The notes: generated by a model not told the origin, from the sequence alone. A stretch of 64,000 nt of DNA from an uncultured Gemmatimonadales bacterium (GCA_963851265.1 CAWKNZ010000002.1:736001-800000); one strand, 5' to 3'. Shown: positions 1-64,000, numbered from the stretch's first letter. A program made the numbers and translations.

Positions 1-628
1 GCTGGTGCCGCACCACGATCGCCGTCCACCCGAGCGCGAGCGCGGTGGCGGGGAGCACGAGGTGGCGAACGCGGTCGGCGACGCGCTCGGGCGCGGTGAA
101 CAGCGCGTCGGCGAGCGGATCGGCGTATCCCCCCGATGGCAGCCACGCGAGCCGAAGCGCGACCACGGCGACGAGCGCGAGCCCGATCACGAACTCGGGT
201 GCGGCGTGCAGCACGACCGTGGCGCCGACGAGGGCGCGGGCGAGCGGGTGTCGTGGGCGCCACCCGGCGAACGCGCCGGTCGCGACGCCGGCGACGAAGG
301 CGAGTGCGAGCGCGGTGCCGACGAGGAGCGCGGTGCGGGGGAGGGCGTCGGCGAGGACGGCGGCGACCGGGCGCTGCTGCGAGACCGACCAGCCGAGGTC
401 ACCGTGCAGGGCGGCGCCGATCCAGCGCGCGTACTGTTCGGGTACCGGGCGGTCGAACCCGAAGCGCGCGCGGAGCGCGGCCCGCGTGGCCTCGCTGATC
501 GTCGGCTGGTCGAGCATCGCCGCGACCGGGTCGCCGGGCGCGAGGTGCAGGAGCAGGAAGCTCGCGGTGGCGGCGACCAGCACGGTGACGGCCGCGTGCA
601 GCAGGCGGCGGAGCGCGAGGCCTAACAC
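1..628 (-). CDS. Peptide/nickel ABC transporter permease (OppB/DppB family), truncated by the window edge
   Basis: Manual minus-strand translation from GTG at 628: VLGLALRRLLHAAVTVLVAATASFLLLHLAPGDP...RFGFDRPVPEQYARWI...HGDLGWS, the typical OppB N-terminus. Lies downstream of an OppA-like gene. Absent from the ORF track because there is no stop in the window. Confidence 0.85.
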   Translation of the reverse strand, partial: MLGLALRRLLHAAVTVLVAATASFLLLHLAPGDPVAAMLDQPTISEATRAALRARFGFDRPVPEQYARWIGAALHGDLGWSVSQQRPVAAVLADALPRTALLVGTALALAFVAGVATGAFAGWRPRHPLARALVGATVVLHAAPEFVIGLALVAVVALRLAWLPSGGYADPLADALFTAPERVADRVRHLVLPATALALGWTAIVVRHQ

Positions 629-675
629 GAATCGGTGCGGACGGCCGGTGGGCGGGGGTGGCGGCGCCGGCGCGG

Positions 676-2388
676 TCAGCGCAGGCCGACGCGGTCGCGG
701 CTGATGCGCTCGCGGGCCGGAATGGACCAGTCGGCGAGTCGCGTCCACCATCCGTCCGCGCGCAGCCCCACGACGCGCACGCGGCGGTGGACGCCGGCGA
801 CGAGTCGGGGCTCGAACAGCCAGACGGCCGGCGCATCGTCGACGATCGTCTGGTACGCCCGCAACCAGTGTGGGCGCGCCCTGGCCGGGTCGCTCGTGAA
901 CAGGGCGCTGTCGACCTGCGCGTCGAAGGCGGGGCTCACGTAGCTGCCGAAATTGGAACCCGCGGCGGAACGCGCGCCCGCGGTCCCCCACGTCTGTCGG
1001 ATGCTCACGGGGCTCGGGTCGGTGTGCCAGCCGCCGACAACCGCGTCGAAGGTGCGGGCGCGTTCGCGGTCGCCGAACGCGGCCAGGTCGAGCGGCTGGA
1101 TCGTGACGCGTGCGCCGACGTTCCGCAGTTGCTCCTGCAGGAGCACCGCGAGTCGCTGGCGCACGGCGCTCGAGGTGGGCACGAGGATGGTGAAGGCGAG
1201 CGGAACGCCACCCTTGGCGCGGATTCCGTCTGCGCCCGGCACCCAGCCGAGCGTGTCGAGCAGGGCGCGCGCTGCACCGACATCGTACGGCAGCTGCTTG
1301 AGGCGACGCCACTCGGGGAAGAGCGCTCGCGGCACCGGGCCGACCGCGACGTCGGCGAGCGAGTCGAACGCGTTGCGTACGATGCGCTCGCGGTCGACGG
1401 CCATGGTCAGCGCGCGGCGCAGGTCGCGGTCGGCGAACAGCGGGTGTGGACGCGCCGAGCCGTCGGCCGCGCGCAGGTTGAACTGCAAGAACCCATAATC
1501 GAGCGATGGGTAGGGCACGAGCCGCACCGTGCGCAGCCGCGCCGTCTGTCCGAACGACTCGGGGCGCAGATTCTCGAAGAAGTCGGCGTCACCGGCCAGG
1601 AGCTGGATCGTGGCGCTGCCGAAGTCGGGCGCGACGTTCCAGACGACGCGATCGAGCTTGGGGCGGCCGCGATAGTTGCCCGGATCGGCGGCGAGTTCGA
1701 GCCGCTGGTTGGGCGTCCATGCCCCGAAGCGAAAGCGGCCGCTCCCGACCGGGTGCCGCGCGAACTCCGATTGTGCCAGCCGATCGCGGGGCGCGCGCGC
1801 GAGCAGATGCTCCGGGAGCACGTACAGGTTGTACGTGACATCGTAGAACTGCGTCGGGAGGCGCCGCTTGTACCAGAACGTCGCGGTGAGCGAGTCATTC
1901 GCCGTGACCGAGTCGACGTTCGAGAGGAGTGGCGCGAGCGGACTGGCCGTGGCGGGATCGGTGTAGAGCCCGAAGCTGAACACGACGTCGCGCGCGCGCA
2001 CCGGCTGTCCGTCGTGCCAGCGTGCGCCGGGCGCGAGATGGAAACTGACCGAGAGCGAGTCCTTCGCCCAGGTCCAGCGATCGCTCAGGCGCGGGCGGAA
2101 GCCGCGGTCGCCGACCGTGTTGAGGGAGTCGCCCAAGTCGGCGAGGCGGTCGTAGACCTGATCGATGGGCGCGCTCGCCTGCGTCGTGGCGGCGAGCGGG
2201 GGGAGAAGCACGCCGGGGTCCGCGGCCGTCGCGACGATGACGGTGCCGCCCACGTCGTCGGTGGCCGGGACCGGGGTGGCCACGTCGCCGCGACACGCGA
2301 CCGCGCCGAGGACGGCGAGTGCCGCGACGCGCGCGCCGGCGCGGCGCCGCACGGCGTGGGAGGGAACGCGGCAGGAACGAACGGGCAT
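676..2388 (-). CDS. Peptide ABC transporter substrate-binding lipoprotein (family 5, OppA/DppA-like)
   Basis: Lipobox-like LGAVAC; family-5 motifs FHLAPGARWHDGQPVRARDVVFSF, PVGSGRFRF, DRDLRRALTMAVDR. Confidence 0.9.
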   Translation of the reverse strand: MPVRSCRVPSHAVRRRAGARVAALAVLGAVACRGDVATPVPATDDVGGTVIVATAADPGVLLPPLAATTQASAPIDQVYDRLADLGDSLNTVGDRGFRPRLSDRWTWAKDSLSVSFHLAPGARWHDGQPVRARDVVFSFGLYTDPATASPLAPLLSNVDSVTANDSLTATFWYKRRLPTQFYDVTYNLYVLPEHLLARAPRDRLAQSEFARHPVGSGRFRFGAWTPNQRLELAADPGNYRGRPKLDRVVWNVAPDFGSATIQLLAGDADFFENLRPESFGQTARLRTVRLVPYPSLDYGFLQFNLRAADGSARPHPLFADRDLRRALTMAVDRERIVRNAFDSLADVAVGPVPRALFPEWRRLKQLPYDVGAARALLDTLGWVPGADGIRAKGGVPLAFTILVPTSSAVRQRLAVLLQEQLRNVGARVTIQPLDLAAFGDRERARTFDAVVGGWHTDPSPVSIRQTWGTAGARSAAGSNFGSYVSPAFDAQVDSALFTSDPARARPHWLRAYQTIVDDAPAVWLFEPRLVAGVHRRVRVVGLRADGWWTRLADWSIPARERISRDRVGLR

Positions 2389-2438
2389 CTACGCGAGAAC
2401 GAGGAGAACGCGCGGGCGTCGCGGCCGGACGGGCGCGT

Positions 2439-3272: not shown

Positions 3273-3280
3273 CGGCGCGT

Positions 3281-3286
3281 AAGCTA
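3281..3286 (-). promoter_or_regulatory. Putative -10 element (TAGCTT) of a leaderless lipoate ligase transcript
   Basis: TAGCTT followed by 8 nt, then ATG; the same pattern recurs at many genes. Confidence 0.5.
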
Positions 3287-3330
3287 TGTACGCGGGATCT
3301 CCGCACGATGTGCTGCACGATGCGCTCGTC

Positions 3331-3375: not shown

Positions 3376-3403
3376 GCGCGCCGCGAACCATACCGGCCAC
3401 CGA

Positions 3404-3409: not shown

Positions 3410-3417
3410 TACTCCCC

Positions 3418-6342
<2,925 letters not shown>

Positions 6343-6362: not shown

Positions 6363-6400
6363 TGGCGTGGGGCGGGGCCTAACGGTCCCGCCCCCCGTCA
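6363..6400. terminator. GC-rich hairpin between convergent gcvP and gcvH
   Basis: Stem GGGGCGGGGCC (6369-6379) / GGTCCCGCCCC (6384-6394) with loop TAAC; no long U-tract. Confidence 0.5.
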
Positions 6401-8265: not shown

Positions 8266-10248
8266 TCAGCTCTCGGTGATCTCGTCCGCGTCGTGGCCCG
8301 CGCGGCCGCGCGGCGCGGCGTCGCGCGCCTCGTCGCGCGCCTCGGTGCTCCCGCCGGCGTTAGGCCGTGCGCGGCGCAGGCGCTCGGCCCGCTCCGCCCA
8401 CTCGCCGCGCTGCTCGGCCCGCTCGCCGACGCCGCGGTCGTCGGGCGCCCCGAAGCCGCGCGGGCCGTCGCGACGCGCGTCGAACCCACGGCCACCGCCG
8501 GCATAGCCTCCGCCCCCGAAGCCGCCCCCGAACCCGCCGGCGCGCTCCGGCCGATCGCCACGCGGCGGGCGGTCGCCGCGGTCGCCGCGGTCGGGCCGTT
8601 CGGCGCGGTCACCCGGGCGGGGCGAACGCGGCCCACGGGCGTCGCCGCGCGGATCGCCGCGCCCCTCTCCCCGACCGCCCCCCGGACCGCCGCGCGCGCC
8701 GCCGGCCGGCGCCTCGCGCTCGGGGCGGACCGCGACGCGACGGCCGCGGATCATCGTCCCGTTGAGCTTCGCGATCACGCGCTCCGCCGTCGCGGCGTCG
8801 ACCTCGACCAGCGAGAAGCTGTCGCGCAGTTCGATGCGCCCGATCTTGTCGCTCGTGATCCCGGCCTCGCCGGCGATCGCGCCGACGAGGTCACCGGCGC
8901 GGACCTCGTCGCGCGTGCCGACCGTGAAGAACAGTCGCACGCTCCCCTTGGGTGGCGGAGCGGCCGGCGCGACGCCGGGTGCGCCGGCCGCGGCCGGCAT
9001 GGCCACCGTCGCGCGGCGCGCGCGTTCGCGCTCGAGGATCCGCACCGCCGCCGCGGCGAGGTCCGCCGCGTCGAAGTCGGCGAGGAGGGGCTCGAGTGCG
9101 ATCACCTCGCGAGGTGGTAAGCCGCGCTCGAGTTCCGCGCGCAGCTCGCTGCGGAGCGCCTCGTCGCGCGCCCGCGCCCGACGCGCGGCATCGCCGAGCG
9201 CGAGTGCGCGGACCGCCCCACCGGCGAGCGCCCGGAGCGCTTCGAGCTGCCGCGGCTGCACGAGCGCGACCGTCTGGCCGGGTTGCGCGGCGAGCACGCG
9301 GTCGAGCGCCTCGCGCGTGACGGGCAGATCGTACAGCACGGCGAGCGCGACGTGCGCTGGCGGCGCGGCGTCGCGTACGAGCGTGACGGCGCCGGCCGCC
9401 GCGGCCACCGGCGCGGCGCCGAGCGCGGCGGGGTCGTCCGACGCGGCGTCGTCCGCGCCGTGCCCGGCCGCCGGTTCGGCCGGCATGCTCGGATAGCCGA
9501 GCGCGGCGCGCGCGTGCTGAACCTCGCGCGCGGACGCGTCGTTGGCGACCACGATGGCCGCGGTCACCGGATCGAGTTCGTCGAGCACTCGGCGCAGCGC
9601 GGCGGGGCGTGCCGCGGCCGACGTGAGGACGTACGCGATTGGCGCCGACACCGGCATCCCGGCGCCCGCGCCCTCGACGCGACGCGCGCGCCAGAGCACG
9701 CGTCCGGCGAGCGCCTCGACCGCGTCGGTCGCGTGCGCCGCGACGAGGATGCGTGCGGCCTCGCGCGGCACCTCGGCGATCACCGCTTCGAGGTCGGCGG
9801 CGTCTGGGGCGGCCAGGATCTCGTCCGCCCACGCCAGCGCCAGCGTACGCACGCCGTCGAGCTTGAGCGTGGCGCCGCGCACGAGGGCGGCGAGGGCGGC
9901 CGGCGTGCCCGCCACGGCTGCGGGCATGCTGCCGGCGGCCTGGCGCGCCGCGAGCTGGCGCGCGGCGCGCTCGGGGCGCCCCACCGGCAGCACGAGCGGC
10001 GTTCCGGCCGCTTCTCCACCGCGTCGGGCGAGGGCGACCTCGGCGATCGCGAGCGCCGTCTCGGCGTCGGGCGTGACGACGAGCAACTGCGGGCCGGCAG
10101 CCTGCGGGTCGAGGCGGTCGAGCGACGCGCCGAGAAACGTCGGAATCGTTCCCCAGTCGTGCGGGAGCGTGTAGACGAGGTGCTGGGCGCGCGTGCCGCC
10201 CGGCGCGCCCTGCTCGGTTTCGGTGTCGGTCGTATCGGTCATGGTCAT
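8266..10248 (-). CDS. Degenerate DEAD-box-helicase-like protein with a DbpA RNA-binding domain and an RG-rich tail
   Basis: Remnant motifs PQLLVVTP, VAGTP, LALAWADEIL. DbpA domain RLFFTVGTRDEVRAGDLVGAIAGEAGI...IGRIELRDSFSLVEV. Low-complexity RG/GGF C-terminus. Confidence 0.75.
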   Translation of the reverse strand: MTMTDTTDTETEQGAPGGTRAQHLVYTLPHDWGTIPTFLGASLDRLDPQAAGPQLLVVTPDAETALAIAEVALARRGGEAAGTPLVLPVGRPERAARQLAARQAAGSMPAAVAGTPAALAALVRGATLKLDGVRTLALAWADEILAAPDAADLEAVIAEVPREAARILVAAHATDAVEALAGRVLWRARRVEGAGAGMPVSAPIAYVLTSAAARPAALRRVLDELDPVTAAIVVANDASAREVQHARAALGYPSMPAEPAAGHGADDAASDDPAALGAAPVAAAAGAVTLVRDAAPPAHVALAVLYDLPVTREALDRVLAAQPGQTVALVQPRQLEALRALAGGAVRALALGDAARRARARDEALRSELRAELERGLPPREVIALEPLLADFDAADLAAAAVRILERERARRATVAMPAAAGAPGVAPAAPPPKGSVRLFFTVGTRDEVRAGDLVGAIAGEAGITSDKIGRIELRDSFSLVEVDAATAERVIAKLNGTMIRGRRVAVRPEREAPAGGARGGPGGGRGEGRGDPRGDARGPRSPRPGDRAERPDRGDRGDRPPRGDRPERAGGFGGGFGGGGYAGGGRGFDARRDGPRGFGAPDDRGVGERAEQRGEWAERAERLRRARPNAGGSTEARDEARDAAPRGRAGHDADEITES

Positions 10249-10703: not shown

Positions 10704-10754
10704 CCGCGCACCGCGCGCCGCGTCGGGCGGCGCGTTCCGCCGGCGCCTAACGTC

Positions 10755-11765
10755 GTGCAGCCGAGCGTCCACGACGTCCGCCGGAGGCTGGGCGCGCTGC
10801 TCCCGTCCGCCGCGCTCGTCGGCGCGGACGACGGCCCCGGCCTCGAGCGCACCTCGGGCCCCCCGGTGGACCCGCCGCGCGTGCGAGCGGCCGCGCCCGT
10901 CGAGGGGCATGCGGTGCGCGCGCGGCGCGTGCCGGCCGCGGTCGCGCCGGAGCAGGGGTTCTCGGCGTTCCTCGACGGCACGCAGCACTCGCGCGTGATC
11001 GGCTACGTGGACGGGCTGCCGGTGGTGCACGGCACGGTCGCGGCGGTGGTGCGCGTGCGGCGCAACCGCCGCCTCACGACGTGGGGGCGGGGCCCGGTGG
11101 TCGAGCGCCGCGTCTACGCCCCGCTCGCGTGCTTCGCCGCGTCGGCCCGCGCGGCGCTCGACGCGCTCGCGGCCGAGCTCGGGCTCGACCTCGTCGACAC
11201 GGCCGAGCCCCGGCCGGGCGAGGACGTGATCTCGGCCCACCCGTTCGCGGTGAGCGACCGCGCGCTCGGCATGGTGAAGGAAGACCGCGAGCGCGCGGAG
11301 AAGGCGCTCGCGGAGCGCTGGTGCCGGCAGGAGCACGAGCCGCTGTTCGTCGACGGCGGGATTCAGGAGAGCGAACTCGTGGCGCGCGCCGGGTGCGTGG
11401 CCGGCGTGGTGAAGAGCCACCGCACGCTCTACGTCGACGCCGACGCGCTACGCACGGTGCTCGGGCTGCGGCAGGGGGAGCGGTCGACGGCGTTCCTCGT
11501 CGGCGGCGGGCGCCGCGCGACGGTGGCCAGCTGGTACCTGCGGCTGCGCGACCCGGCGGGGCACGACCCGATGTGGGGCCTCGTGCGCGTCGAGGCCGCC
11601 GCGCCCGACCCGGCCGAGGCGCCCGACGCGTTCACGGCGCGGCTCGACCGGCTGTCGCGGTGGATCGCGGCGGAGGCGGCGCCGCTCTCGCTACCCGACG
11701 CGCGGTGGGACAAGCTGGCGTACGGGGTACACGACTGCGAGCAGTTCCTGCGCGCAGTGTGTTAG
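10755..11765 (+). CDS. NurA-like nuclease domain protein
   Basis: FLDG, LFVDGG, GVVKSH, GERSTAF, SWYLRLR, GLVRVE and a C-terminal E-containing helix; the pattern matches bacterial NurA-domain proteins. Confidence 0.7.
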   Translation: MQPSVHDVRRRLGALLPSAALVGADDGPGLERTSGPPVDPPRVRAAAPVEGHAVRARRVPAAVAPEQGFSAFLDGTQHSRVIGYVDGLPVVHGTVAAVVRVRRNRRLTTWGRGPVVERRVYAPLACFAASARAALDALAAELGLDLVDTAEPRPGEDVISAHPFAVSDRALGMVKEDRERAEKALAERWCRQEHEPLFVDGGIQESELVARAGCVAGVVKSHRTLYVDADALRTVLGLRQGERSTAFLVGGGRRATVASWYLRLRDPAGHDPMWGLVRVEAAAPDPAEAPDAFTARLDRLSRWIAAEAAPLSLPDARWDKLAYGVHDCEQFLRAVC

Positions 11766-13921
11766 GCACGGGGTATTGGGTCGGCCGCGTCGTCACCCGC
11801 AGCCACGCACCGCAGCACCTCCGCCACGCTCCATGCCTGCGCGATGCACCCGCGCGGCGTGTACGGCGCCTCGGCGTCGAACACCTCGGCGATCGACCCG
11901 ACCCCGAACTCGCCCAGGTGGTCGAGGAGCGCGTCCAGGTACTGCCGGGCGCCGGCGTCGTCGCCGGGGTGCAGCTTGCGCCACGCGTCCACCCACGGCC
12001 CGATGAGCCACCCCCACACCGTTCCCTGGTGGTACGCGGCGTCGCGCGCGCGCAGGTTGCCGAAGTACTGCGCCTTGTACTCCGGGCTCCCCGGGGCGAG
12101 CGAGCGCAGGCCGTAGGGCGTCAGGAGTCGTATTTCGCACGCGGTGACCACCGCGTCCCAACGGGCGCGGTCGAGCACCGGGTTGGGCAGGGAGATCGCG
12201 AACAGCTGGTTGGGGCGGAACTCGGTCGAGTCGCCGTCCGGCCCGTCCACGACGTCGTACAGGTAGCCGCCCGCGTCGTACCAGAAGCGCGCGTTGAACG
12301 CGTCGCGCACCCGATCGGCCGCGTCCTCGTAGAGCGCCGCCGCTTCCGGACCGCGCGCCTCACGCGTCCACCGCGCGAGGTTGGCGAGGGCATTGTACCA
12401 GAGCGCGTTGATCTCGACCGGCTTGCCGCGCCTGGGCGTGACCACCCAGCCGTCGACCTTGGCGTCCATCCAGGTCAGCTGGAATCCCTCGGCGCCCTCG
12501 CGCAGGAGGCCGTCGGCGGGGTCCACGCCGATCCCGAAGCGCGTGCCCGCCGTGTGACGCGCGACGATGTCCTGCAGCACCGGGAGCAACTGTCTGACCG
12601 TCGCGCGGTCGCCGGTGATGCGGTCGTAGCGGTCGAGCGCGTGGAAGAACCAGAGCGTCGCGTCGGCGGTGTGGTACAGGCCGTCGTTGCTGCCATCCGG
12701 GAACATGTTCGGGATGAGGCCGTCGCGCACGTACTGCGCGAACGTTCGCAGGATGAACCCCGCCTCGCGCCACCGCCCGGTGGTCAGCGTGAGCCCCTCG
12801 AGCGAGATCATCGTGTCGCGCCCCCAATCCGTGAACCAGTGATAGCCGGCGATCACGGTGCGCACCTCGTCGCCGGTGGCCTGCGCGCGCACGCGGTCGT
12901 GCAGGCGGCCGGACGGCATGATGAGGAACTGGTCGGCGGCGAGCACCAGCTCCGCGGCGCGCGGGTCGGCCTCGAGCGCGCGGCGTACAGCGGCGTGCGG
13001 CATCTCGAGCAGCCGCCGGCGCCGTTCGTGCTCCGCGGCGCGGGCGTCGGCGGGGCTCAACGCGCGCATCACGTCCGGGCTCTCGGTCGAGGCGACGAGC
13101 GTGACGGGCGCGTCGGGCGCGAGTTGCAGCACGAAGTGGCCCGGCGACCACAGTGCGCCGCGGTCGGCGTAGCCGCGTGACTCCTCGACCCGGTACAGCA
13201 GATCCCGCGTGCGGAGCGGGTCGAGCGTCGGCGTCGCCTGCGCGCCCACGAACCCGAGTCGCAGGGACGGGAGGTCCGGGCGCCCCGCGAGCGTGACGAC
13301 GTAGTACTCGTCTTCGGCGCTGAGCCGGTACTGCTGGTCCGCGGCGGTCGCCGCGACGTCGGCCTCGTAGCCGCGAAAGTCGAGCGCGGGGCGCAGCTCG
13401 AGTTGGGCCGGCGCGGGTCCGGCGAGCGTGTACGTGATGTGCACGCTGTTCTGCCGGTAGGGCATGAGCAGGCGCTTCTCGATCGTCGCCATGCCGGCCC
13501 CCGTTCCGATGCGATAGACCCACACCGGGAGCCCCGCCTCGAGCCGGAACTCGGGCAGCAGGCGCACGCCCTCGGCGTCGAGCAGGCGGCCGTCGGCCCA
13601 CTCGGCCGCGCTCAGCGTGACGGTGGTGCCGTCGGCCAGGGTGACGCGCTCGATGAGGTGGTTGAGCATCACCATGCGGCCTAACGGGTTGGGCAGCGCG
13701 GCGACGAGCACGCCGTGGTACTTCCGCGTGGGGAGCGAGGCCACGCTGGCCGAGGCGTACCCGCCGAGGCCGTTGGTGACGAGCCACTCGCGGTCCACGA
13801 GCTCCGCAACGTCGACCGCGGCGCCGTCGGCCGCCGCGGGCCCGGTGATCCGCCGGACGACGCGGTCGACGAGGCGGTCCGACGCGGGCGCGTCGGCGGG
13901 TGCTGCTGGAACGGTGAGCAC
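11762..13921 (-). CDS. Amylo-alpha-1,6-glucosidase / glycogen debranching enzyme (GDE_N + GDE_C)
   Basis: EWLVTNGLGGYAS, IAGYHWFTDWGRDTMISLEGL, LTWMDAK, RPNQLFA, YHQGTVWGWL, GCIAQAWSVAE. Confidence 0.93.
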   Translation of the reverse strand: MLTVPAAPADAPASDRLVDRVVRRITGPAAADGAAVDVAELVDREWLVTNGLGGYASASVASLPTRKYHGVLVAALPNPLGRMVMLNHLIERVTLADGTTVTLSAAEWADGRLLDAEGVRLLPEFRLEAGLPVWVYRIGTGAGMATIEKRLLMPYRQNSVHITYTLAGPAPAQLELRPALDFRGYEADVAATAADQQYRLSAEDEYYVVTLAGRPDLPSLRLGFVGAQATPTLDPLRTRDLLYRVEESRGYADRGALWSPGHFVLQLAPDAPVTLVASTESPDVMRALSPADARAAEHERRRRLLEMPHAAVRRALEADPRAAELVLAADQFLIMPSGRLHDRVRAQATGDEVRTVIAGYHWFTDWGRDTMISLEGLTLTTGRWREAGFILRTFAQYVRDGLIPNMFPDGSNDGLYHTADATLWFFHALDRYDRITGDRATVRQLLPVLQDIVARHTAGTRFGIGVDPADGLLREGAEGFQLTWMDAKVDGWVVTPRRGKPVEINALWYNALANLARWTREARGPEAAALYEDAADRVRDAFNARFWYDAGGYLYDVVDGPDGDSTEFRPNQLFAISLPNPVLDRARWDAVVTACEIRLLTPYGLRSLAPGSPEYKAQYFGNLRARDAAYHQGTVWGWLIGPWVDAWRKLHPGDDAGARQYLDALLDHLGEFGVGSIAEVFDAEAPYTPRGCIAQAWSVAEVLRCVAAGDDAADPIPRA

Positions 13922-16669: not shown

Positions 16670-16709
16670 GGTGGGCCGCGCTCCGCGCGGCCCGCCGCGT
16701 TCGTTAGGC
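16670..16709 (+). terminator. Hairpin after tRNA-Lys, followed by CGTTAGGC
   Basis: 12-bp stem GGTGGGCCGCGC / GCGCGGCCCGCC (one G-T pair), then GCGTTCGTTAGGC. Confidence 0.55.
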
Positions 16710-16893: not shown

Positions 16894-18414
16894 ATGTCCC
16901 TCCCCTTTCGCACCCCGCGCCTGGCGGCCGCCGCGCTCTCGGCCGCGCTCGCGCTCCTCGCGGTCGAATCCAGCGGCGCCCAGCAGCCGGGCCCGGCGCC
17001 CGCGCCGCTCGCCGGCGTCGCCGGTCCGGTCGGATCGCCGATCCCCGGCCCGTCGCTCGGCGACACCGCGATCACCATCCCGATCCCGACGGTGCCCGCG
17101 AGCTTCGGCGGCCCCGCGGCGGCGACGTTCGCGCACACGCCCGGCCTGACGTGGGACCTGGACGTGCTGCCCTACGAGGGGCACCAGCGCGTGCAGCGGT
17201 ACGTCACCCTGTTCAGTACCGGCGCCCGCGACCGGTTCACGGAGTACCTGCACCGCGGCACGCGGTACGACTCGCTCATCCGCGGCAAGCTGCGCGCGGG
17301 CGGGTTGCCCGAGGACCTCACGTACCTCGCGCTCGTCGAGAGCGGCTACGACGTGCACGCGACGTCGCGGGTGCGCGCGGTCGGCATGTGGCAGTTCATG
17401 GCCGAAACGGCGCGCGACGTCGGGCTGCGCGTGGACTGGTGGGTCGACGAACGCCGCGACCCGGTGCGCTCCACCGACGCCGCGGTGCGCACGCTGCGCT
17501 GGCTCAAGGGGCAGTTCGGCTCGTACTTCGTCGCCGCGGCCGCGTACAACGGCGGCTCCGGGCGCGTGTCGCGCGGACTCGCGCAACTCGCTGACGTCGA
17601 CAGCGCGGGCGCGGCCGCTCCGGGCGAGGCGCGCTTCTTCGCGCTCGCCGAGCACGACGTGCTGCACGACGAGACGAAGAACTACGTCCCGCAGCTCATC
17701 GCGGCCGCGCTCGTCGCGAAGGAGGCGCCGCGCTACGCGATCCGCCCGGCGCCGCTCCCGCCGCTCGCGTACGACTCGGTGCGCGTGCCGGGCCTAACGC
17801 CGCTCGCCGCGGTCGCCGCCGCGAGCCGCGCGTCGCGCGCCGACCTGCTCGACCTCAACCCGCACCTGCTGCGCGGCGTCACGCCGCCGGGCGCGGCGCT
17901 GCTCGTGCGCGTCCCGGCCGGGCAGGGCGCCGCCGCCGCCGAGCGGTTCTCCAAGCTGGGTGACGAAATTCGGCGGGCGTTCCACGCGTCGGTCACGCGC
18001 AAGCGCGAGACGTGGGCCGCGCTCGCGGAACGCCTCGGCACGCCGCGCACGTGGCTCGAGCGGTACAACGCTGGGCTGGCCACCGTCGCCCACGGCCGCA
18101 ACCGCGGGCGGCTCGTGAGCGGGCAGACGGTGCGCGTGCCCACCGACGCCGTGATCGCCTACTCGCAGGACGTGGCGAGCGACGGCGGCGGGCCGGGCGC
18201 GCTCCCCCGCCTGGCGGCGGCCGCAGAGGCGGCACCGGGCGACGCGGCGCCCGCGGACGAGCCCGCGGCGAAATCCGAACGCCGCCGCGGGCCGCGCGCC
18301 GACGTCCGCGCGACGGCCGCCGTGCGCGGTCAGCATACCGCTCACGCCAAGGCGCGCATCACCGTGGCGAAGCTGCACCGCCGGCGCGGCGCGGGGGCGA
18401 ACCGCGAGGGGTGA
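16894..18414 (+). CDS. Lytic murein transglycosylase, MltD-like (SLT + LysM-like repeats)
   Basis: Signal peptide; LALVESGY, AVGMWQFM, VDERRDP, AAYNGG, ETKNYVP; LysM-like DLLDLNPHL and LERYN...LVSGQTVRVP. Confidence 0.88.
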   Translation: MSLPFRTPRLAAAALSAALALLAVESSGAQQPGPAPAPLAGVAGPVGSPIPGPSLGDTAITIPIPTVPASFGGPAAATFAHTPGLTWDLDVLPYEGHQRVQRYVTLFSTGARDRFTEYLHRGTRYDSLIRGKLRAGGLPEDLTYLALVESGYDVHATSRVRAVGMWQFMAETARDVGLRVDWWVDERRDPVRSTDAAVRTLRWLKGQFGSYFVAAAAYNGGSGRVSRGLAQLADVDSAGAAAPGEARFFALAEHDVLHDETKNYVPQLIAAALVAKEAPRYAIRPAPLPPLAYDSVRVPGLTPLAAVAAASRASRADLLDLNPHLLRGVTPPGAALLVRVPAGQGAAAAERFSKLGDEIRRAFHASVTRKRETWAALAERLGTPRTWLERYNAGLATVAHGRNRGRLVSGQTVRVPTDAVIAYSQDVASDGGGPGALPRLAAAAEAAPGDAAPADEPAAKSERRRGPRADVRATAAVRGQHTAHAKARITVAKLHRRRGAGANREG

Positions 18415-32520: not shown

Positions 32521-32528
32521 GGGACGTG

Positions 32529-33646: not shown

Positions 33647-33720
33647 GCGCCGCGATGCGGGCTGCGACTCAGCGGGCGTTCCGCTTCGCGGCGGCGTTCG
33701 CAGGCCGCCCGTGCCTAACG

Positions 33721-49331: not shown

Positions 49332-51776
49332 ATGTCTCGCTTTCTCGCGCGGCGCGCGCGCGCGCCGCGGAGTCGCGGCGGCCGCATCCGTCGCGCGCCG
49401 GTCGCGTTCGTCATCACGGCGGCGGTCACGCCCCTTGCCGCCCGCCTCGCGCACGCCGCGCCGCCCGATTCGACGGCCGGCCGCCGCGTAGTCGCCGCCC
49501 CGCCTGTGGTCGGTGTGGTGCGCGACTCGATGGGGCAGCCCCTCTCGAACGTGCAGGTCGTGATCGCCACGCTCAATCGTGGCACGACCACCGATGAGCG
49601 TGGCGCGTTCGAGTTTCGCGGCCTCGCCGCGGGACGGTACCACGTCGACGCCCTGCTCATCGGCTACCGGCGCGCGGACCTCGACATCGTCGTGCCGACG
49701 AGCGGACCCGACGTACGGGTCACGATCGTGATGCGGCGGACCGCGCTGCAACTGCAGAACGTGGTCGTCACGGCCACTCCCGTCGGCGCCGACCCGCTCC
49801 GGCTGACGCAGAGCACCGTCTCGCTCTCGGGCAAGGAGCTCGCGCGCAACCTCGGGTCGAGCGTGGCGCAGACGCTGAGCAACGAGCCCGGCATGGCCAT
49901 GCGGTTCAACGGACCGGCGGCGAACGTGCCGGTGATCCGCGGGCTGTCGGGCGAGCGCATTCTCGTGCTGCAGGACGGGAACCGCGCGGGCGACCTCTCC
50001 TCCGCCGCCGCCGACCACGGGCTGTCGATCGATCCGCTCGTCTCCAACCGGATCGAGGTCGTACGCGGGCCTGCCTCGCTCCTCTATGGCACGAACGCGC
50101 TCGGTGGCGTGGTGAACGTGATCTCGAACGACATCCCGACCGACATGCCGCGCCGCACCGACGGCTTCGTGTCGACCAACCTCGAGTCGGTGAACCCGGG
50201 TGGCGCGGTTGCGGGCGGCGTCACGACCCCGATCACGGACGCGGTGGTGGCGAACGTGCGCGGCTCGTTCCGCAGCACGAGCAACCTGTACCAGGGTGGC
50301 GGCGCGCGGCTCGACAACAGCTACAACCGCAACCAGAACGGCCTCGCCGCGCTCGGCTACGTCGGCGACAAGATTCACGCCGGCCTCGCCTACTCGGCCT
50401 ACAACTTCGACTACGGGCTGCCGTTCGCGCCGGGAGACGACCCGTCGCACATCGTGGGGCTGCGGCAGGAGGTGAAGGGGCGCGCCGACCTGTCGTTCGA
50501 GAACCCGATCGTCGACCAGCTGCGCGTGGACGGCACCGCGCAGTGGTACCACCACAGCGAGATCGCGAGCGACGGCGCGGTCGGCACGCGTTTCGGGCTG
50601 CGCACGCAGACGCTGAACGCGACCGCACGCACGCACGTCGGCCCGCTCGACGGCGCGGTCGGCCTGCAGGGGCTGCTGCGTCAGTACACGGCGACCGGCG
50701 CAGAAGCGCTCACGCCCGCGGCCAACACGGTGAACGGGGGCCTGTTCGTCTACCAGGAGCTGCCCCTCACGGGCGCGCGCGACACGAGCGTCGGCGCGGC
50801 GCACGGGAACGACGAGCACGGGAACGGCATCCGCCTTCAGTTCGGCGGTCGCGCGGACGCGTTCCAGCTCAGGACGGTCGCGAGCGACCTGCCCAAGTTC
50901 GGCAGCGCGCGCACGCGCTCGTTCGACAACTTCTCCGGATCGTTAGGCCTGTCGTTCCCGCTGGCCGAGCGTACGACGTTCGGCGTGAGCGCGGCGCGGT
51001 CGTTCCGCGCGCCGTCCGTCGAGGAGCTGTACTCGAACGCGTTCCACGCCGCGGTCGGGACGTACGACGTCGGCGACCCCAACCTCAAGGCCGAGACGGA
51101 CCAGGGCTTCGACGGCGTGCTGCGCACCCAGCGCGGCCGCGTCGACGCGCAGGTCTCGGCGTACTACAACCGGATCAACAACTACATCACGCCGAACGTC
51201 GTCGGCACGGTGGACGCGACCACGGGCCAGGCGGCTACGGGCGCCGGCAGCGTGCCGCTGAACGTCTACACGCAGCGCGACGCGCGGCTGTACGGCGCCG
51301 AGGGACGCGTCGAAGTCGAGGCGGCGCCCCACGTCGTGCTCGGCACGACGGGCGACCTCGTGCGCGGCAACTTCACCCAGGGCATCGCGAGCGCGCTGCC
51401 GTACCTGCCGCCCGCCCGACTCGGCGTGAACGCGCGCTACGACGACTCGCGCTACTCGCTCTCGGCCGAAGTGCGCCATGCGTTCGCGCAGACCCGCACG
51501 TCGCAGCCGTCGTGCGCGACCGGCCCGATTCTCGGACCCACGGGGAGCGGGAACACGCAGGACGGGACGCCCTGCCTCGACATCCCGGCGTCGGCGTACA
51601 CGCTCGTCAATCTCAGCGCCGGCGTCACGCTCAGTCGCGGGCCGATGCTGCACACACTCACCCTCCGCGCGGACAACCTGCTCGACCGCCGGTACGTGGA
51701 CGCGACGAGTCGGATCAAGTATTTCGCGTACAACCCCGGGCGCGATATCGCGTTGGTGTATCGGGTGCAGTTCTGA
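49332..51776 (+). CDS. TonB-dependent receptor (ZnuD-like metal receptor) with N-terminal carboxypeptidase-regulatory-like domain
   Basis: PVIRGLSGERILVLQDG, DHGLSIDP, IEVVRGPASLLYG...LGGVVNVI, FRAPSVEELYSNAFH, GDPNLKAE, C-terminal F. Confidence 0.93.
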   Translation: MSRFLARRARAPRSRGGRIRRAPVAFVITAAVTPLAARLAHAAPPDSTAGRRVVAAPPVVGVVRDSMGQPLSNVQVVIATLNRGTTTDERGAFEFRGLAAGRYHVDALLIGYRRADLDIVVPTSGPDVRVTIVMRRTALQLQNVVVTATPVGADPLRLTQSTVSLSGKELARNLGSSVAQTLSNEPGMAMRFNGPAANVPVIRGLSGERILVLQDGNRAGDLSSAAADHGLSIDPLVSNRIEVVRGPASLLYGTNALGGVVNVISNDIPTDMPRRTDGFVSTNLESVNPGGAVAGGVTTPITDAVVANVRGSFRSTSNLYQGGGARLDNSYNRNQNGLAALGYVGDKIHAGLAYSAYNFDYGLPFAPGDDPSHIVGLRQEVKGRADLSFENPIVDQLRVDGTAQWYHHSEIASDGAVGTRFGLRTQTLNATARTHVGPLDGAVGLQGLLRQYTATGAEALTPAANTVNGGLFVYQELPLTGARDTSVGAAHGNDEHGNGIRLQFGGRADAFQLRTVASDLPKFGSARTRSFDNFSGSLGLSFPLAERTTFGVSAARSFRAPSVEELYSNAFHAAVGTYDVGDPNLKAETDQGFDGVLRTQRGRVDAQVSAYYNRINNYITPNVVGTVDATTGQAATGAGSVPLNVYTQRDARLYGAEGRVEVEAAPHVVLGTTGDLVRGNFTQGIASALPYLPPARLGVNARYDDSRYSLSAEVRHAFAQTRTSQPSCATGPILGPTGSGNTQDGTPCLDIPASAYTLVNLSAGVTLSRGPMLHTLTLRADNLLDRRYVDATSRIKYFAYNPGRDIALVYRVQF

Positions 51777-51955: not shown

Positions 51956-52810
51956 TCACCCGTCCCGCTCGTACCCCCGCAACAACTGCATCATCCTCGT
52001 ATCCGTCGCCGTCGCGTCCTCCCCTTTCGGCGTCTCCAGGATCTTCGGCACCTCCGCCAGCCGCGAATCCGTCATGATGCGCCGGAACGGTCGCTCGCCT
52101 AACGTTCCCTCGGCGATCAGCTCGTGCCGGTCCTTGCGCGACGCGAACGGGAACTTCGAGTCGTTCAGGTGCAGCACCCGCAGCCGCCCGAGTCCGAGCA
52201 CGTCGTCGAAGCGCGCCCACACGCCGTCGTAATCGCCCACGAGGTCGTACCCCGCCGAGTACGCGTGGCAGGTGTCGAGACACACGCCCACGCGCGGCTG
52301 GTGCTCGGATGGGAGCCGAGCGATGATCTCGGCGATCTCCTCGAACGTCCGCCCGAGCACCGTCCCCGCGCCCGCCGTCGTCTCGAGGCAGAGCACCGTA
52401 CGCCCCGGCACGCGCGCGAGCGCTTCCGCGATCCCGTCCGCGTTGCGCGCGATGCCCGCCTCGCGCTCGTCCATGAAGTTGCCCGGGTGTGACACGAGGT
52501 AGTCCACGCCGAGCGCCTCGCACCGCGCCAGCTCCGCGGCGAACGAATCGACCGAACGCGCGCGGAGCGCATCGTCCGGCGAGGCGAGGTTGATGAGGTA
52601 GGAATCGTGCGACACGGTCGCGCGCACGCCCGTCGTCCCCAACGCGTCGCGGAACTGCGCCGACTCCGCGTCGTCGCAGACGCGCTCCGCCCAGCGGTTG
52701 GCCTGCTTGGTGAACAGCTGGAGCGCGGTCGCGTCGATCGCGTGCGCGCGCGGCGGGGCCTGGGCGATGCCGCCCGCCGTCGAAACGTGTGCGCCGAGGA
52801 GAGAAGCCAT
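51956..52810 (-). CDS. nfo: Endonuclease IV
   Basis: LGAHVS, HDSYLINLAS, HPG, LETTAG, CLDTCH, HLNDSK, DRH, ILETP. Confidence 0.96.
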   Translation of the reverse strand: MASLLGAHVSTAGGIAQAPPRAHAIDATALQLFTKQANRWAERVCDDAESAQFRDALGTTGVRATVSHDSYLINLASPDDALRARSVDSFAAELARCEALGVDYLVSHPGNFMDEREAGIARNADGIAEALARVPGRTVLCLETTAGAGTVLGRTFEEIAEIIARLPSEHQPRVGVCLDTCHAYSAGYDLVGDYDGVWARFDDVLGLGRLRVLHLNDSKFPFASRKDRHELIAEGTLGERPFRRIMTDSRLAEVPKILETPKGEDATATDTRMMQLLRGYERDG

Positions 52811-55946: not shown

Positions 55947-57200
55947 TCAGGCCGCGAGCGCCTGCGCGAGGTCGGCGATCAAGTCCGCCGGATCCTCGAC
56001 GCCGATGCTCAGGCGCAGGAAGCCGTCGGGGATGCCGATCGCCGAGCGCTCCTCGCTCGTCAGCTTCGCGTGCGACGTGTACCGCGGCTCGACGACGAGC
56101 GAGTCGACGCCGCCGAGCGAGGTCGCGTGCGTGAACAGTCGCAGCGCGCGCAGGAAGCGGTCCGCCGCGGGCGCGCCGCCCGCGAGTTCGATCGCGAGCA
56201 TGCCGCCGAACCCGTCGAGCGTCGCGGCGGCGAGTGCGTGGTCGGGGTGCGACGGCAGCCCCGGGTAGTGCACGCGCGCGACGGCCGGGTGCGCGTCGCA
56301 CCAGCGCGCGATCGCCGTCGCGTTCGCGTTCTGCCGTTCCACGCGCACGGCGAGCGTCTTGAGCCCGCGCTCGAGCAGCCAGCACGCGAACGGGTCGGGC
56401 GCCTGCCCCCAGCGCACCATCTTCTCGCGCACCTCGGCGATGTAGCTCGCCGACCCGATCACCGCCCCGCTCAGCACGTCGTGGTGGCCGTTGAGGTACT
56501 TGGTGGCGGAGTGGATGACGACGTCGGCGCCGTGCTCCAGGGGGCGGAAGTTGATCGGGCTCGCGAACGTCGAGTCGACGACCAGCGCGACGCCGAGTTC
56601 GCGCGTGAGGCGACTGAGCGAGCGCATGTCGACCACGCGCGTCGTCGGGTTGACCGGCGACTCGATGAACACCGCGCGCGTGTTGGGCCGGAGCGCGTTG
56701 CGCCACCCGCGCGAGCGCGTCGGCTCGACGAACGTCGTGCGGATGCCTAACGTCGCGAACTCCTGCGCGAACAGCGTCTGCGTGCCGCCGTAGATCCAGG
56801 CGCTCGCCACGAGGTGGTCGCCGGGGCGGAGCAGGGCGAGCAGCGCGCACGCGGTCGCGCCCATCCCGCTCGCGAGCACGAGCGCCGCCTCGCCGCGGTC
56901 GAGGAGGGCGAGGCGCTCCTGCACCCGCTCGGCGTTGGGCGTGTTCCCGTAGCGGGTGTAGCGCACGCCCTCCGCCGTCCCGAAGGGCTGCGTGTGCGGG
57001 ATCGACTGCACGAGCGGCGCGACCACCGGCTCGCGGTCGGCGTGCGCGCCGCCCTCGGCAACGCCGCCGCCCACCGCCCGCGCCCCGTGCAGCGCGATCG
57101 TCGACAGCCCGGCGGGCGCGGCGGTGACGCCGGCCGCCGCGCCGGGGAGTTCGTCCGTCGTGGAATCGGCGGCGTCGGCCGGCGCGGGACGGGGCGTCAC
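55947..57200 (-). CDS. Cys/Met metabolism PLP-dependent enzyme (cystathionine gamma-lyase/synthase family)
   Basis: YTRYGNTP, ASGMGA, ESPVNP, VDSTFASP, HSATKYLNGH, SLGGVDSL, LRLSIGVED. Confidence 0.93.
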   Translation of the reverse strand: MTPRPAPADAADSTTDELPGAAAGVTAAPAGLSTIALHGARAVGGGVAEGGAHADREPVVAPLVQSIPHTQPFGTAEGVRYTRYGNTPNAERVQERLALLDRGEAALVLASGMGATACALLALLRPGDHLVASAWIYGGTQTLFAQEFATLGIRTTFVEPTRSRGWRNALRPNTRAVFIESPVNPTTRVVDMRSLSRLTRELGVALVVDSTFASPINFRPLEHGADVVIHSATKYLNGHHDVLSGAVIGSASYIAEVREKMVRWGQAPDPFACWLLERGLKTLAVRVERQNANATAIARWCDAHPAVARVHYPGLPSHPDHALAAATLDGFGGMLAIELAGGAPAADRFLRALRLFTHATSLGGVDSLVVEPRYTSHAKLTSEERSAIGIPDGFLRLSIGVEDPADLIADLAQALAA

Positions 57201-61374: not shown

Positions 61375-61442
61375 GCCGCCAATCTACGCGCCCGCACCGC
61401 GGGCCATTCCGGCCCCGGCGTCCCCCGCGTTATCCGCGGCGA

Positions 61443-62483
61443 TCATCGCGCCGCCGTCGTCTGCCCGAGCGCGCCCGCGATCATCGCCGGCGTCTGCTCG
61501 CGCATGCACCGCCAGTGTCCGAGCGGGCACACCCGCGGCCCGTGGCGGTCACACGGCCGGCACGCGAGGTCGTGCACCCCGGTCGTCGCGCTTTCCGGTG
61601 CGAGCGGCCCGAATCCGAAGGCCGGCACCGTCGGCCCGAACACCGTCAGCGTCGGCGTGCCCATCGCCGACGCGAGGTGCTGCGGCGCGGAGTCGTTGGT
61701 CACGAGTCGAACCGCCCGGCCGATCAACTCCGCGCTCGCGAGCAACGAGAGTCGTCCCGTCGCGTCGATCGCCCGCCCGGCCGGACAGGCGGCGACGATC
61801 GCCGATGCGAACTCGCGATCGTCGACTCCGCCCACGACTACGACCGCCACGTCGCCCGCCATCCGCGCCGCGAGCTCCGCGTAGTACGGCCACCGCTTCG
61901 TCGCCCACACGCTCCCCGGTGCCATCGCCACGAACGCCGCGCCGCCGAGCGGCCCGAGCACCGCGTCGACCGCCTCGCGTTCCGCGACGCCGGGGTACAG
62001 CCGCGGCCGCACTTCGTCCGCACTCGGCGCGGCGCCAAGCGCATCGGTCGGCAGCGCCAACGCCCAGAGTCGCTCCGTGTGGTGCCGGTCCGCCCGGTAG
62101 CGCACGACGCGCGTGTACAGCGCCCGCGCGTTCCGCGACGTGTCGAACCCGACCCGCTCGCCGGCGCCCGCGAGCACCGCGAGCACGGCACTGCGTGGCG
62201 ACCCCTGCGCCATGTACGCCGCCGCGTACGGCCCGCCGTCGCGCAGCCTCCGTCCGAGGCGCCACGTCCCGCGGAGGCCGCCGTCCCGCCCCCGCTTGTC
62301 GTAGACCAGCAGGTGCCTAACGAACGGATCGTGCGCCAGCAGCGCGTCCGCCCCCGCCCGCACCACCACGTCGACCGGTCCGCGTCGCGCCAACTCCCGG
62401 ATCAGCGGCGTGGTGAGCACGACATCGCCCAAGAACGACGTCTGCACCACGAGACTCGCTTCGGCCACGGCCCCGCGCGCCAC
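61443..62483 (-). CDS. Glycosyltransferase family 9 (LPS heptosyltransferase II-like)
   Basis: VQTSFLGDVVLTTP, APGSVWATKRW, TNDSAPQHLASA, VFGPT, CRPC. Confidence 0.9.
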   Translation of the reverse strand: MARGAVAEASLVVQTSFLGDVVLTTPLIRELARRGPVDVVVRAGADALLAHDPFVRHLLVYDKRGRDGGLRGTWRLGRRLRDGGPYAAAYMAQGSPRSAVLAVLAGAGERVGFDTSRNARALYTRVVRYRADRHHTERLWALALPTDALGAAPSADEVRPRLYPGVAEREAVDAVLGPLGGAAFVAMAPGSVWATKRWPYYAELAARMAGDVAVVVVGGVDDREFASAIVAACPAGRAIDATGRLSLLASAELIGRAVRLVTNDSAPQHLASAMGTPTLTVFGPTVPAFGFGPLAPESATTGVHDLACRPCDRHGPRVCPLGHWRCMREQTPAMIAGALGQTTAAR

Positions 62484-62505
62484 CCCGTCCCGAAAACCGC
62501 GGCCG

Positions 62506-64000
62506 CTAGTCGACCTGCAGGACGGCCAGGAACGCCTCCTGCGGAATTTCCACCGCGCCCACCTGCTTCATCCGCTTCTTCCCCTCCTTCTGCTTCTCCA
62601 GAAGCTTGCGCTTCCGCGAGATGTCCCCGCCGTAGCACTTCGCGAGCACGTCCTTCCGCAACGGCTTGACCGTCGTGCGCGCGATGACCTTCTGCCCGAT
62701 CGCGGCCTGGATCGCCACCTCGAACAGCTGTCGCGGAATCAGCTCCTTGAGCTTGTCCGCGATCTTCCGCCCCCAGTCGTACGCCTTGTCCTTGTGGATG
62801 ATGACCGAGAATGCGTCGATCGGGTCGCCGTTGATCAGCATGTCGAGGCGCACGAGGTCGCTCTCGCGGTAGCCGAGCATCTCGTAGTCGAGCGAGGCGT
62901 AGCCGCGGCTGACGGTCTTCATCCGGTCGAAGAAGTCGAGGATGATCTCGCCGAGCGGAAACTCCCAGTCGAACTCGACGCGCTCCGCGTCGAGGTACGT
63001 CATGTTCTTGTACACGCCGCGCCGCTCCGTGCCTAACGTCATCAGCGGCCCGATGTAGTCCTTCGGCGCCATGATCCGCGCCTTGACGTACGGCTCCTCC
63101 ACCCGGTCGATCACCGCCGGCGCGGGCATGAGCGACGGATTCTCGACCGTGACCAGCTCGCCGTCGGTCCGGTACACCTTGTACTCCACGCTCGGCACCG
63201 TCGTGACGAGGTCGAGGTCGAACTCGCGCTCCAGCCGCTCCTGCACGATCTCCATGTGCAGCAGCCCGAGGAACCCGCAGCGAAACCCGAAGCCCAACGC
63301 CGTCGACGTCTCCGGCTCGTACTGCAGCGACGCGTCGTTCAGCTGCAGCTTCTCGAGCGCGTCGCGGAGCAGCTCGTACTGCGTGGTGTCGGTCGGGTAG
63401 ATCCCCGCGAACACGAACGAGCGCACCTCCTGGTACCCGGGCAGCGCCTCGGGCGCCTTGTTGGTCGCGTCGAACACCGTGTCGCCCGCCCGCGTCTCGC
63501 GCACGGAGCGCACGTTCGCCACCACGTAGCCCACCTCGCCCGGCCCGAGCTGGTCGGCCTGCACCTGCCGCAGCTGGTTGTACCCGACCTCGGCCACCTC
63601 GTACACCGCGTCGTTCGTGCCGAAGGTGATCTGCATCTTCGGCTTGAGCACGCCGTCGACGACGCGCACGCTCGGGATCGCGCCGCGGTACTTGTCGTAG
63701 TACGAATCGTAGATGAGCGCGCGGAGCGGACCGCCCGCGTCGCCCACCGGCGCCGGCACGCGCTCGACCACCGCTTCGAGCAACTCGCTGATCCCGATCC
63801 CGGCCTTCGCCGACACGCGCAGGATGCCGTCCGCGTCCACGCCTAACAGGTCCGACACTTCCTGCGCGCGGCGGTCCGGCTCGGCACCCGGCAGGTCGAT
63901 CTTGTTCAGGATCGGGATGATCTCGAGCCCCGCGTCCATGGCGAGGAACAGGTTCGAGAGCGTCTGCGCCTGGATCCCCTGGCTCGCGTCGACCACGAGC
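62506..64000 (-). CDS. lepA: Translation elongation factor 4, 5' end outside the window
   Basis: [73 protein letters not shown]. Confidence 0.98.

Follow-up and report, generated by a model that had tools for sequence, protein, structure and literature searches.

A sharply defined non-palindromic DNA word dispersed through Gemmatimonadales genomes is a candidate self tag

The word and its copies at the locus

The DNA considered here is a window of 64,000 nucleotides (positions 736001 to 800000 of contig C2, CAWKNZ010000002.1) from a metagenome-assembled genome of the Gemmatimonadaceae (GCA_963851265.1, here G000), which is 4.60 Mb in size, is held on 12 contigs and has a G+C content of about 73%. 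Its genes and intergenic DNA are strewn with a short word that reads GCCTAACR on one strand and YGTTAGGC on the other, and that can be shortened to the 7-mer GCCTAAC/GTTAGGC. A sequence-only reading of the window had reported 29 exact copies, 22 on the plus strand and 7 on the minus strand, with a purine always at the eighth base. All 29 lie where it had placed them, and the eighth base is G in 21 copies and A in 8. Three congeners, G001, G002 and G004, were used for comparison site by site, and the copies are as follows, with the codon frame in which each is read and its state in the congeners.

620..627, plus, GCCTAACA: TAA at 623-625 is the stop codon of a plus-strand open reading frame (ORF) ending at 625; intact in G004 and G002, different in G001
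5298..5305, plus, GCCTAACG: gcvP, CCT-AAC (Pro-Asn); intact in G002, GCCCAAC in G001, GCCGAAC in G004
6377..6384, plus, GCCTAACG: intergenic, after gcvP; intact in G001, other congeners unaligned
8358..8365, minus, GCCTAACG: DbpA-domain helicase gene (minus), CCT-AAC (low-margin frame); intact in G004 only
10745..10752, plus, GCCTAACG: near the start of a plus-strand ORF, CCT-AAC; intact in G004 and G002
11760..11767, minus, GCCTAACA: plus strand reads GTTAGGC, TAG at 11763-11765 is the stop codon of the ORF 10704-11765; intact in G001 and G004
13679..13686, plus, GCCTAACG: glycogen-debranching gene (minus), TTA-GGC (Leu-Gly); intact in all three congeners
16702..16709, minus, GCCTAACG: intergenic; intact in G001
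17792..17799, plus, GCCTAACG: SLT-domain gene (plus), CTA-AC; absent from all three congeners, the sole copy private to G000
21111..21118, minus, GCCTAACG: TTA-GGC in a plus-strand ORF; intact in G001 and G002
23120..23127, minus, GCCTAACG: TTA-GGC frame; intact in G001 and G002
25874..25881, plus, GCCTAACG: CCT-AAC in a plus-strand ORF; intact in G004 and G002
26599..26606, plus, GCCTAACA: alcohol-dehydrogenase-type gene (minus), TTA-GGC; intact in all three congeners
28531..28538, plus, GCCTAACA: TTA-GGC in a minus-strand ORF; intact in all three congeners
31618..31625, plus, GCCTAACG: TTA-GGC in a minus-strand ORF; intact in all three congeners
32527..32534, minus, GCCTAACA: ambiguous frame call; intact in G001 and G004
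33713..33720, plus, GCCTAACG: intergenic, downstream of uvrA; congeners unaligned
34451..34458, plus, GCCTAACA: uvrA (minus), TTA-GGC; intact in G001, of the CTC-GGx type in G004 and G002
34940..34947, plus, GCCTAACG: uvrA (minus), TTA-GGC; intact in G004 and G002, TTG-GGC in G001
36149..36156, plus, GCCTAACG: uvrA (minus), TTA-GGC; intact in all three congeners and in L001
38027..38034, plus, GCCTAACG: ABC transporter gene (plus), CTA-AC; intact in all three congeners
42616..42623, plus, GCCTAACG: HD-associated gene (minus), TTA-GGC; intact in all three congeners
45150..45157, plus, GCCTAACA: pckA (minus), TTA-GGC; intact in all three congeners
50941..50948, minus, GCCTAACG: TonB-dependent receptor gene (plus), TTA-GGC; different in G002, other congeners unaligned
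52097..52104, plus, GCCTAACG: TTA-GGC in a minus-strand ORF; intact in all three congeners
56745..56752, plus, GCCTAACG: cysteine/methionine pyridoxal-phosphate enzyme gene (minus), TTA-GGC; intact in G004 and G002, CTG-GGC in G001
62315..62322, plus, GCCTAACG: GTT-AGG-C (Val-Arg) in a minus-strand ORF; intact in G004 only
63031..63038, plus, GCCTAACG: lepA (minus), TTA-GGC; intact in G002, CTG-GGC in G001, TTG-GGC in G004
63841..63848, plus, GCCTAACA: lepA (minus), TTA-GGC; intact in G004 and G002, CTC-GGC in G001

Copies had been placed in the conserved genes gcvP, uvrA, pckA and lepA, and these identities are confirmed. The earlier division of the copies by context (17 Leu-Gly, 3 Pro-Asn, 2 Leu-Thr, 1 Val-Arg, 2 forming stop codons and 4 intergenic) is nearly matched by automatic frame assignment, which gives 17 xYG-TTA-GGC, 4 CCT-AAC, 3 CTA-AC, 2 GTT-AGG and 3 over a stop codon, with about 7 of the 29 calls being of low margin, at gene ends or intergenic. 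Dinucleotide-preserving shuffles of the window contain a mean of 1.27 copies of GCCTAACR (standard deviation 1.02, largest 4), and none of 100 shuffles reaches 29. The claimed enrichment therefore stands, and the earlier expectation of about 3 copies was generous, if anything. When synonymous codons are permuted inside each called ORF, so that protein and codon usage are kept, the window is expected to hold 1.76 ± 1.36 in-ORF words (largest 7 in 200 shuffles), and it holds 23. As the word exceeds both the codon- and the dinucleotide-preserving nulls, the enrichment survives the very comparison on which the sequence-only reading had staked it.

Abundance of the word and its action on DNA

The word is no local peculiarity of the window. 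The G000 genome contains 1762 copies of GCCTAAC, 877 forward and 885 reverse, or about one per 2.6 kb, where about 19 are expected from a model built with the word masked. The 8-mer GCCTAACG is the most over-represented in the genome (1396 copies against 58 under an order-3 Markov model). The signal is sharply bounded, with the 21 one-mismatch variants of GCCTAAC at only 0.97 to 2.9 times their own expectation. In the sequence logo of G000 the eighth base is G (0.79) or A (0.14), a weak preference precedes the word, and beyond these two features the flanks show no conservation, only codon periodicity. Z-scores from a maximal-order Markov model do not flag the word, whose sub-words are composed of the word itself. 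The top 7-mers of that model in G000 are AGGCGCT/AGCGCCT (2075 against 1040), AAGCGCT/AGCGCTT (635 against 234) and similar AGC...GCT words.

It is at the level of DNA, and not of protein, that the pressure on the word acts, as the sequence-only reading had proposed. Support comes from the codon null, from the spelling of TTA codons and from conservation at orthologous synonymous sites, described below. Genome-wide, 1159 words lie in called ORFs against 80.5 ± 9.5 in 20 codon-preserving shuffles, the coding and non-coding counts being limited by a crude gene set (2658 ORFs covering 82% of the genome). The predicted context preference of TTA is borne out, in that GGC comes next after 824 of the 1209 TTA codons and YG (CG or TG) stands before 916. 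Thus TTAGGC spells 824 of 10831 Leu-Gly pairs (7.6%), and CCTAAC, in the opposite orientation to transcription, spells 209 of 1768 Pro-Asn pairs (11.8%). These rates indicate that both orientations are similarly used where a single synonymous spelling suffices. CTA-AC spells 106 of 6541 Leu-Thr pairs and GTT-AGG 66 of 11354 Val-Arg pairs. The share of Leu-Gly pairs written TTAGGC rises from 5.6% in the genes of lowest codon score to 10.2% in those of highest, so that the genes with the most typical codons hold the most copies of the rarest codon.

Conservation and turnover among congeners

The window was aligned to the syntenic DNA of the three congeners, with which it shares 83-87% DNA identity. 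Its words are intact at 16 of 27 aligned sites in G001, 19 of 23 in G004 and 19 of 25 in G002. By comparison, in-frame control 7-mers with A or T at the middle third position are intact in 222 of 1541, 236 of 1521 and 257 of 1706 cases (14-15%), and those with G or C there in 24-33%. Survival of the intact word between congeners is four to five times that of control 7-mers.

When the word sites of G000, G001, G002 and G004 are pooled, 73 sites are obtained, of which 9 are occupied in all four genomes. The word is present in a single genome at 27 sites (10 in G001, 9 in G002, 7 in G004 and 1 in G000) and absent from a single genome at 9 (4 in G000 and 5 in G001), and the other 28 have different patterns or are not fully aligned. 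At sites of gain in a congener, G000 mostly has GCCGAGC (CTC-GGC), which is two changes away, with TTG-GGC as an intermediate. The word is thus both retained and actively added in this genus, with G000 itself lagging.

Orientation and spacing

On the coding strand GTTAGGC outnumbers GCCTAAC by 920 to 361, with 481 words outside called ORFs. This excess arises because Leu-Gly is commoner than Pro-Asn, and the 22:7 skew of the window arises because most of its genes are on the minus strand. Raw GC skew is weak in G000, corrected GC3 skew reaches only about ±0.03, and the replichores are not firmly defined in the draft; given this, the local majority gene strand was used as a proxy for replication direction. 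In genes co-oriented with the majority strand, TTAGGC spells 125 of 1545 Leu-Gly pairs (8.1%) and CCTAAC 19 of 229 Pro-Asn pairs (8.3%), and in counter-oriented genes the figures are 17 of 302 (5.6%) and 3 of 50 (6.0%). By this proxy, no crossing pattern is seen between the two sets of genes. Along contig C2, word orientation changes from 17 forward and 5 reverse in 750-800 kb to 0 forward and 13 reverse in 800-850 kb, directly beyond the end of the window, and a second flip lies near 1350 kb; both track gene strand. A match to a Xer-type recombinase (C2, 1347315-1347503) lies beside the convergent switch near 1350 kb, which may be the terminus.

Gaps between words are near exponential (1750 gaps, mean 2592 bp, coefficient of variation 1.07), and the number of words per 10-kb bin has a dispersion of 1.00; a case for even spacing was considered and is not significant. 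Short gaps are depleted, with 78 below 300 bp in G000 against 191 expected, and 14 below 100 bp in G012, a relative from another genus, against 31. Word density climbs with G+C content, from 2.5 to 5.5 copies per 10 kb.

The longest stretch of G000 that is free of the word spans 45,086 bp (contig C1, 182876-227962), where about 5e-5 such gaps would be expected among 1750. It consists of housekeeping DNA around mnmG-parA-parB-mnmE and is 73-82% identical to the congeners, while its flanks are 86-89% identical. An exclusion zone around parAB was considered and rejected, as parB of G004, G001 and G012 has a copy 0.1-6 kb away. The parB contig of G008, 37 kb long, carries only 4 copies, of which the nearest lies 5.2 kb from the gene. 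No closer donor for the stretch was found among 150 genomes of the family, the best still being G004 and G001 at 78-81%. Since the zone is not conserved and its identity is lowered, the stretch can be read as a diverged, possibly imported, segment that would not yet have been tagged.

Distribution among relatives

In a survey of 41 relatives, the 8-mer abounds in each of the five genomes of the genus (727-2415 copies). G012 holds 6360 copies, G008, G017, G018 and G040 hold 460-605, and 26 of the 41 hold fewer than 100. Across 301 genomes of the order that are at least 80% complete, 29 reach 400 copies or more, with the strands in balance, and these belong to 16 of 89 genera and to all three families. 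Contrasts also occur within genera, since four genomes of genus g48 hold 3244-4141 copies where a fifth (G155) holds 66, and in g16 the counts are 173 against 858. Unpublished genomes are included in these tallies (G011 among the 41 relatives; G011, G094, G212 and G266 among the 301) and in the search of 150 genomes for a donor (G368); apart from being counted there, they carry no claim made here. In named plasmid records of the cultured Gemmatirosa kalamazoonensis KBS708, a non-pathogenic isolate from soil, there are 42 copies in 50 kb against 1.2 expected (0.84 per kb), and 25 in 50 kb (0.5 per kb). A small contig of the word-rich G167 (C4, 20,952 bp in whole) had been entertained as word-free, but it carries 20 copies (0.95 per kb) and is as dense as the large replicons.

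The only dialect seen is that of G012, in which the first base is G (0.64), A (0.16) or C (0.13) followed by CCTAACG, at 1.28 copies per kb. The words that rank first in G020 and G019 are no dialects but heptamers repeated in tandem between genes, namely (GACTAGT)n or GACTAGTC-type repeats in G020 (C5, 200001-300000) and (GCGGGAA)n in G019 (C5, 240001-340000), at several places per 100 kb. GTAGTAG was likewise set aside as a dialect, as it looks like the reverse strand of TAC-TAC (Tyr-Tyr). The sequence-only reading knew of no description of the word in this lineage, and none was found in the literature searched on its letters, on uptake sequences, on integrons and on Gemmatimonads, judged in part by title and abstract. 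As far as the literature could be searched, the word is new to print.

Identity with the integron core

Letter for letter, the word is the R''/R' core boxes (GCCTAAC/GTTAGGC) of attC sites in this order, a match on which the sequence-only reading had not remarked. In the word-poor genomes G027 and G025, dense co-oriented copies are attC sites: they form imperfect inverted repeats, GCCTAAC-N(76-120)-GTTAGGC, at intervals of about 0.4-1.6 kb. Integrase genes stand beside some of them, and G000 has a small array of its own; it is from these three genomes that the word is recognized as the R''/R' core. The word also fits the RYYYAAC/GTTRRRY consensus described for integrons (PMC3053210).

The dispersed copies are a different matter. 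In an attC site, the two cores bound an imperfect inverted repeat of 57-141 bp at the end of a cassette. Fewer than 1% of copies lie in attC-like pairs, and only 8 convergent pairs at 60-150 bp exist among the 1762 words of G000. More than 99% of copies are single, inside housekeeping genes, with neither partner box nor cassette, and no L box was found in the flanks of the dispersed G000 words. On contig C10, a 15-kb stretch (188936-203792) holds four convergent GCCTAAC...GTTAGGC pairs with 90-114 bp between the words, probably a second cassette cluster, with no integrase nearby.

Matches to IntI above the family cut-off are found in 25 of the 41 relatives, among them 5 of the 10 word-rich and 17 of the 26 word-poor genomes. 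In G000 the IntI gene is split by the insertion of a large serine recombinase (contig C6, 2951-7469; locus L089), arranged as follows.

L089:2951-3322, minus: C-terminal piece of IntI
L089:3135-6230, plus: serine recombinase (Resolvase, Recombinase and Zn-ribbon domains), between the IntI pieces
within L089:5202-7469, minus: N-terminal part of IntI

A copy of the word lies at L089:3469, near one end of the serine recombinase insert. Only fragments of IntI occur in G001 and G012, and no IntI was detected in G002, G008 and G018, yet words are still conserved and gained in G001 and G002. Integrase does not explain the dispersed copies, the abundance of which does not parallel its presence.

Candidate mechanisms

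The sequence-only reading had put forward four kinds of mechanism, of which an uptake-like signal and a DNA-binding-protein site are left standing and methylation or repair and a polar Chi- or KOPS-like (FtsK orienting polar sequence) signal are weakened. The cyanobacterial HIP1 word (GCGATCGC) is similarly an octamer that is over-written at synonymous sites, lineage-specific and sharply defined, and a bias from methyltransferase-linked or very-short-patch-type repair, as has been proposed for HIP1, could in principle have made the present word. However, HIP1 is a palindrome tied to cognate methyltransferases, whereas GCCTAAC is not its own reverse complement and no matching methyltransferase was found. 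A profile search of G000 gave no match to PF01555, PF00145 or PF02086 and only broken pieces of PF02384. There is an intact Eco57I/MmeI-type protein of 1141 residues with an N6-adenine methyltransferase domain (contig C7, 582089-585511; L164:2086-5511, minus strand), and enzymes of this type recognize asymmetric sites of 6-8 bp ending in A-C or A-G. It is present in 40 of the 41 relatives, the word-poor included, with no closer likeness among the word-rich, and Vsr occurs in only 4 of 41 genomes, all of them word-poor, so that neither tracks the word. A single in-frame stop codon, usually TGA but in some cases TAG, interrupts many orthologues of the Eco57I/MmeI-type protein, and several are split near residues 507-546, which could reflect recoding, a two-gene form or decay. 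G. kalamazoonensis carries the word, yet the motifs of its single-molecule real-time methylome are only RGATCY, ATGCAC and CCAGN7TCA, 5-methylcytosine being outside the method (PMC3974934). Within that reach the word is unmethylated in a cultured relative, and an origin in methylation or repair is highly improbable. The same may nearly be said of a Chi-like or KOPS-like signal for a recombination nuclease or DNA translocase, which we regard as very unlikely. Such signals are also asymmetric 7-8-mers enriched in core DNA, and the 22:7 skew of the window would suit one. That skew tracks gene strand, however, the coding-strand imbalance matches the frequencies of Leu-Gly and Pro-Asn, and no polarity is left beyond gene strand by the majority-strand proxy. 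Of 41 genomes, only 1 gave a match to RecC (PF04257), AddAB not having been searched. The enrichment of about 90-fold and the use of the rarest codon are also far above what is known of Chi sites.

It is possible, although unlikely, that an abundant chromosomal protein (nucleoid-associated, condensin-related or of the occlusion type) binds the word, with no relation to uptake. Thousands of conserved, orientation-neutral duplex sites are consistent with this, as is the depletion of short gaps in G000 and G012, which steric exclusion between bound proteins would give. Spacing is otherwise random, and the sole positional pattern, the word-free zone at parAB, is not conserved in G001, G004 and G012. 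The site-specific nucleoid factors that are known have some tens to hundreds of sites, and in the absence of a drive selection could act only very weakly on any one of thousands of sites. Alternatively, the word may be read by the integron machinery, with the dispersed R-box words serving as landing pads, decoys or titrators for IntI or having been spread by its activity. This idea, which we consider quite unlikely, is favored by the identity of the word with the attC boxes of the order and its fit to the published consensus, by the purine at the eighth base that word and boxes have in common, by the frequency of IntI in the order and by the emergence of the same word in three families. Against it are the occurrence of IntI without regard to word content, the upkeep and gain of words where IntI is broken or was not found, and the scarcity of paired copies and L boxes. 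In addition, we know of no mechanism by which IntI writes point changes.

The word as a candidate self tag

The enrichment is real and strong, and the reading that we tentatively prefer, with a little less than even confidence, is that YGTTAGGC is a duplex self tag, a candidate recognition word for a protein that reads double-stranded DNA in the manner of the DNA uptake sequence (DUS) of the Neisseriaceae and the uptake signal sequence (USS) of the Pasteurellaceae. Both of these are family-wide and have dialects, and to our knowledge these two proteobacterial families are the only ones with sequence-specific self tags for DNA exchange. As with DUS and USS, the word is short, non-palindromic and exact, occurs in thousands of copies (about one per 0.7-2.6 kb) in both orientations, lies inside genes in the least costly frames, is kept between related species, varies by genus and is sparser in atypical DNA, and genes for a pilus and ComEC are present. 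In contrast to them, it belongs to a different phylum and has different letters, is patchy by genus with most relatives having no such word, forms no inverted pairs of the terminator type and coincides with the integron core.

According to this self-tag model, the word would be written wherever a synonymous or non-coding spelling permits and held there by purifying pressure, still being added in the congeners and hardly at all in G000. A surface or periplasmic receptor of a type IV pilus/ComEC uptake route would prefer DNA that bears the word, and tagged alleles from kin would be taken up and recombined more often than untagged ones. Such biased uptake and recombination could drive the word to thousands of copies and keep it there. 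The observations behind the model are the enrichment, the action on DNA, the symmetry between strands, the conservation, the ongoing gain, the dialect of another genus, the lack of methylation at the word in a cultured relative and the presence of uptake machinery. A place for the reader in DNA uptake or recombination is inferred, as is biased uptake with recombination as the driving force. The diverged 45-kb core segment that lacks the word also counts in favor of the model, as does the weakening of its rivals.

Several observations weigh on the other side. G000 has ComEC, PilM and ten pilin-like genes, but ComEC and PilM are each found in 40 of the 41 relatives (for PilM at the search threshold), alike in word-rich and word-poor ones, and no difference is seen between 8 word-rich and 12 word-poor genomes in the pilin cluster upstream of pilM. 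The machinery therefore permits the self-tag reading and lends it no specific support. No reader was found, in that none of IntI, the Eco57I-type protein, ComEC, PilM, Vsr and RecC tracks the word among the 41 relatives, and no report of natural transformation in this phylum was found in the literature searched, as judged by titles. The patchy spread at the level of genera is unlike the family-wide spread of DUS and USS, and no alternative dispersed word was found in 100-kb samples of G006, G021, G015, G024, G035, G037, G034 and G016. The G000 window shows 1 gain against 4 losses. If the 45-kb segment was imported, untagged DNA can still gain entry. The exact identity with the integron core, finally, needs an explanation that an uptake model does not itself supply. 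One conceivable link, which we think improbable, is that some Gemmatimonadales lineages evolved or acquired a receptor tuned to the attC core of chromosomal cassette arrays, a word that already marked their DNA in hundreds of copies, after which biased uptake and recombination would have spread the word through the core genome.

Significance

Should the self-tag reading be correct, the word would be the first self tag in this phylum and the third independent case, and self tags would be a recurrent solution, here in an abundant and little-studied phylum of soil bacteria. The contrasts within genera, such as 66 against about 3200-4100 copies, provide sharp natural material for finding the reader, and a cultured, fully sequenced word-rich strain exists. 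The word is, moreover, of practical use as a strong marker when these lineages are binned or foreign DNA in them is sought. Given the identity with the integron core, uptake specificity and cassette recombination may share a word, which would bear on the movement of cassettes in soil. If the link between tag and integron held, the cassettes of this order, with two tags per 0.5-1 kb or so, would be the DNA most readily imported, and natural transformation would be coupled to the trafficking of gene cassettes in soil.

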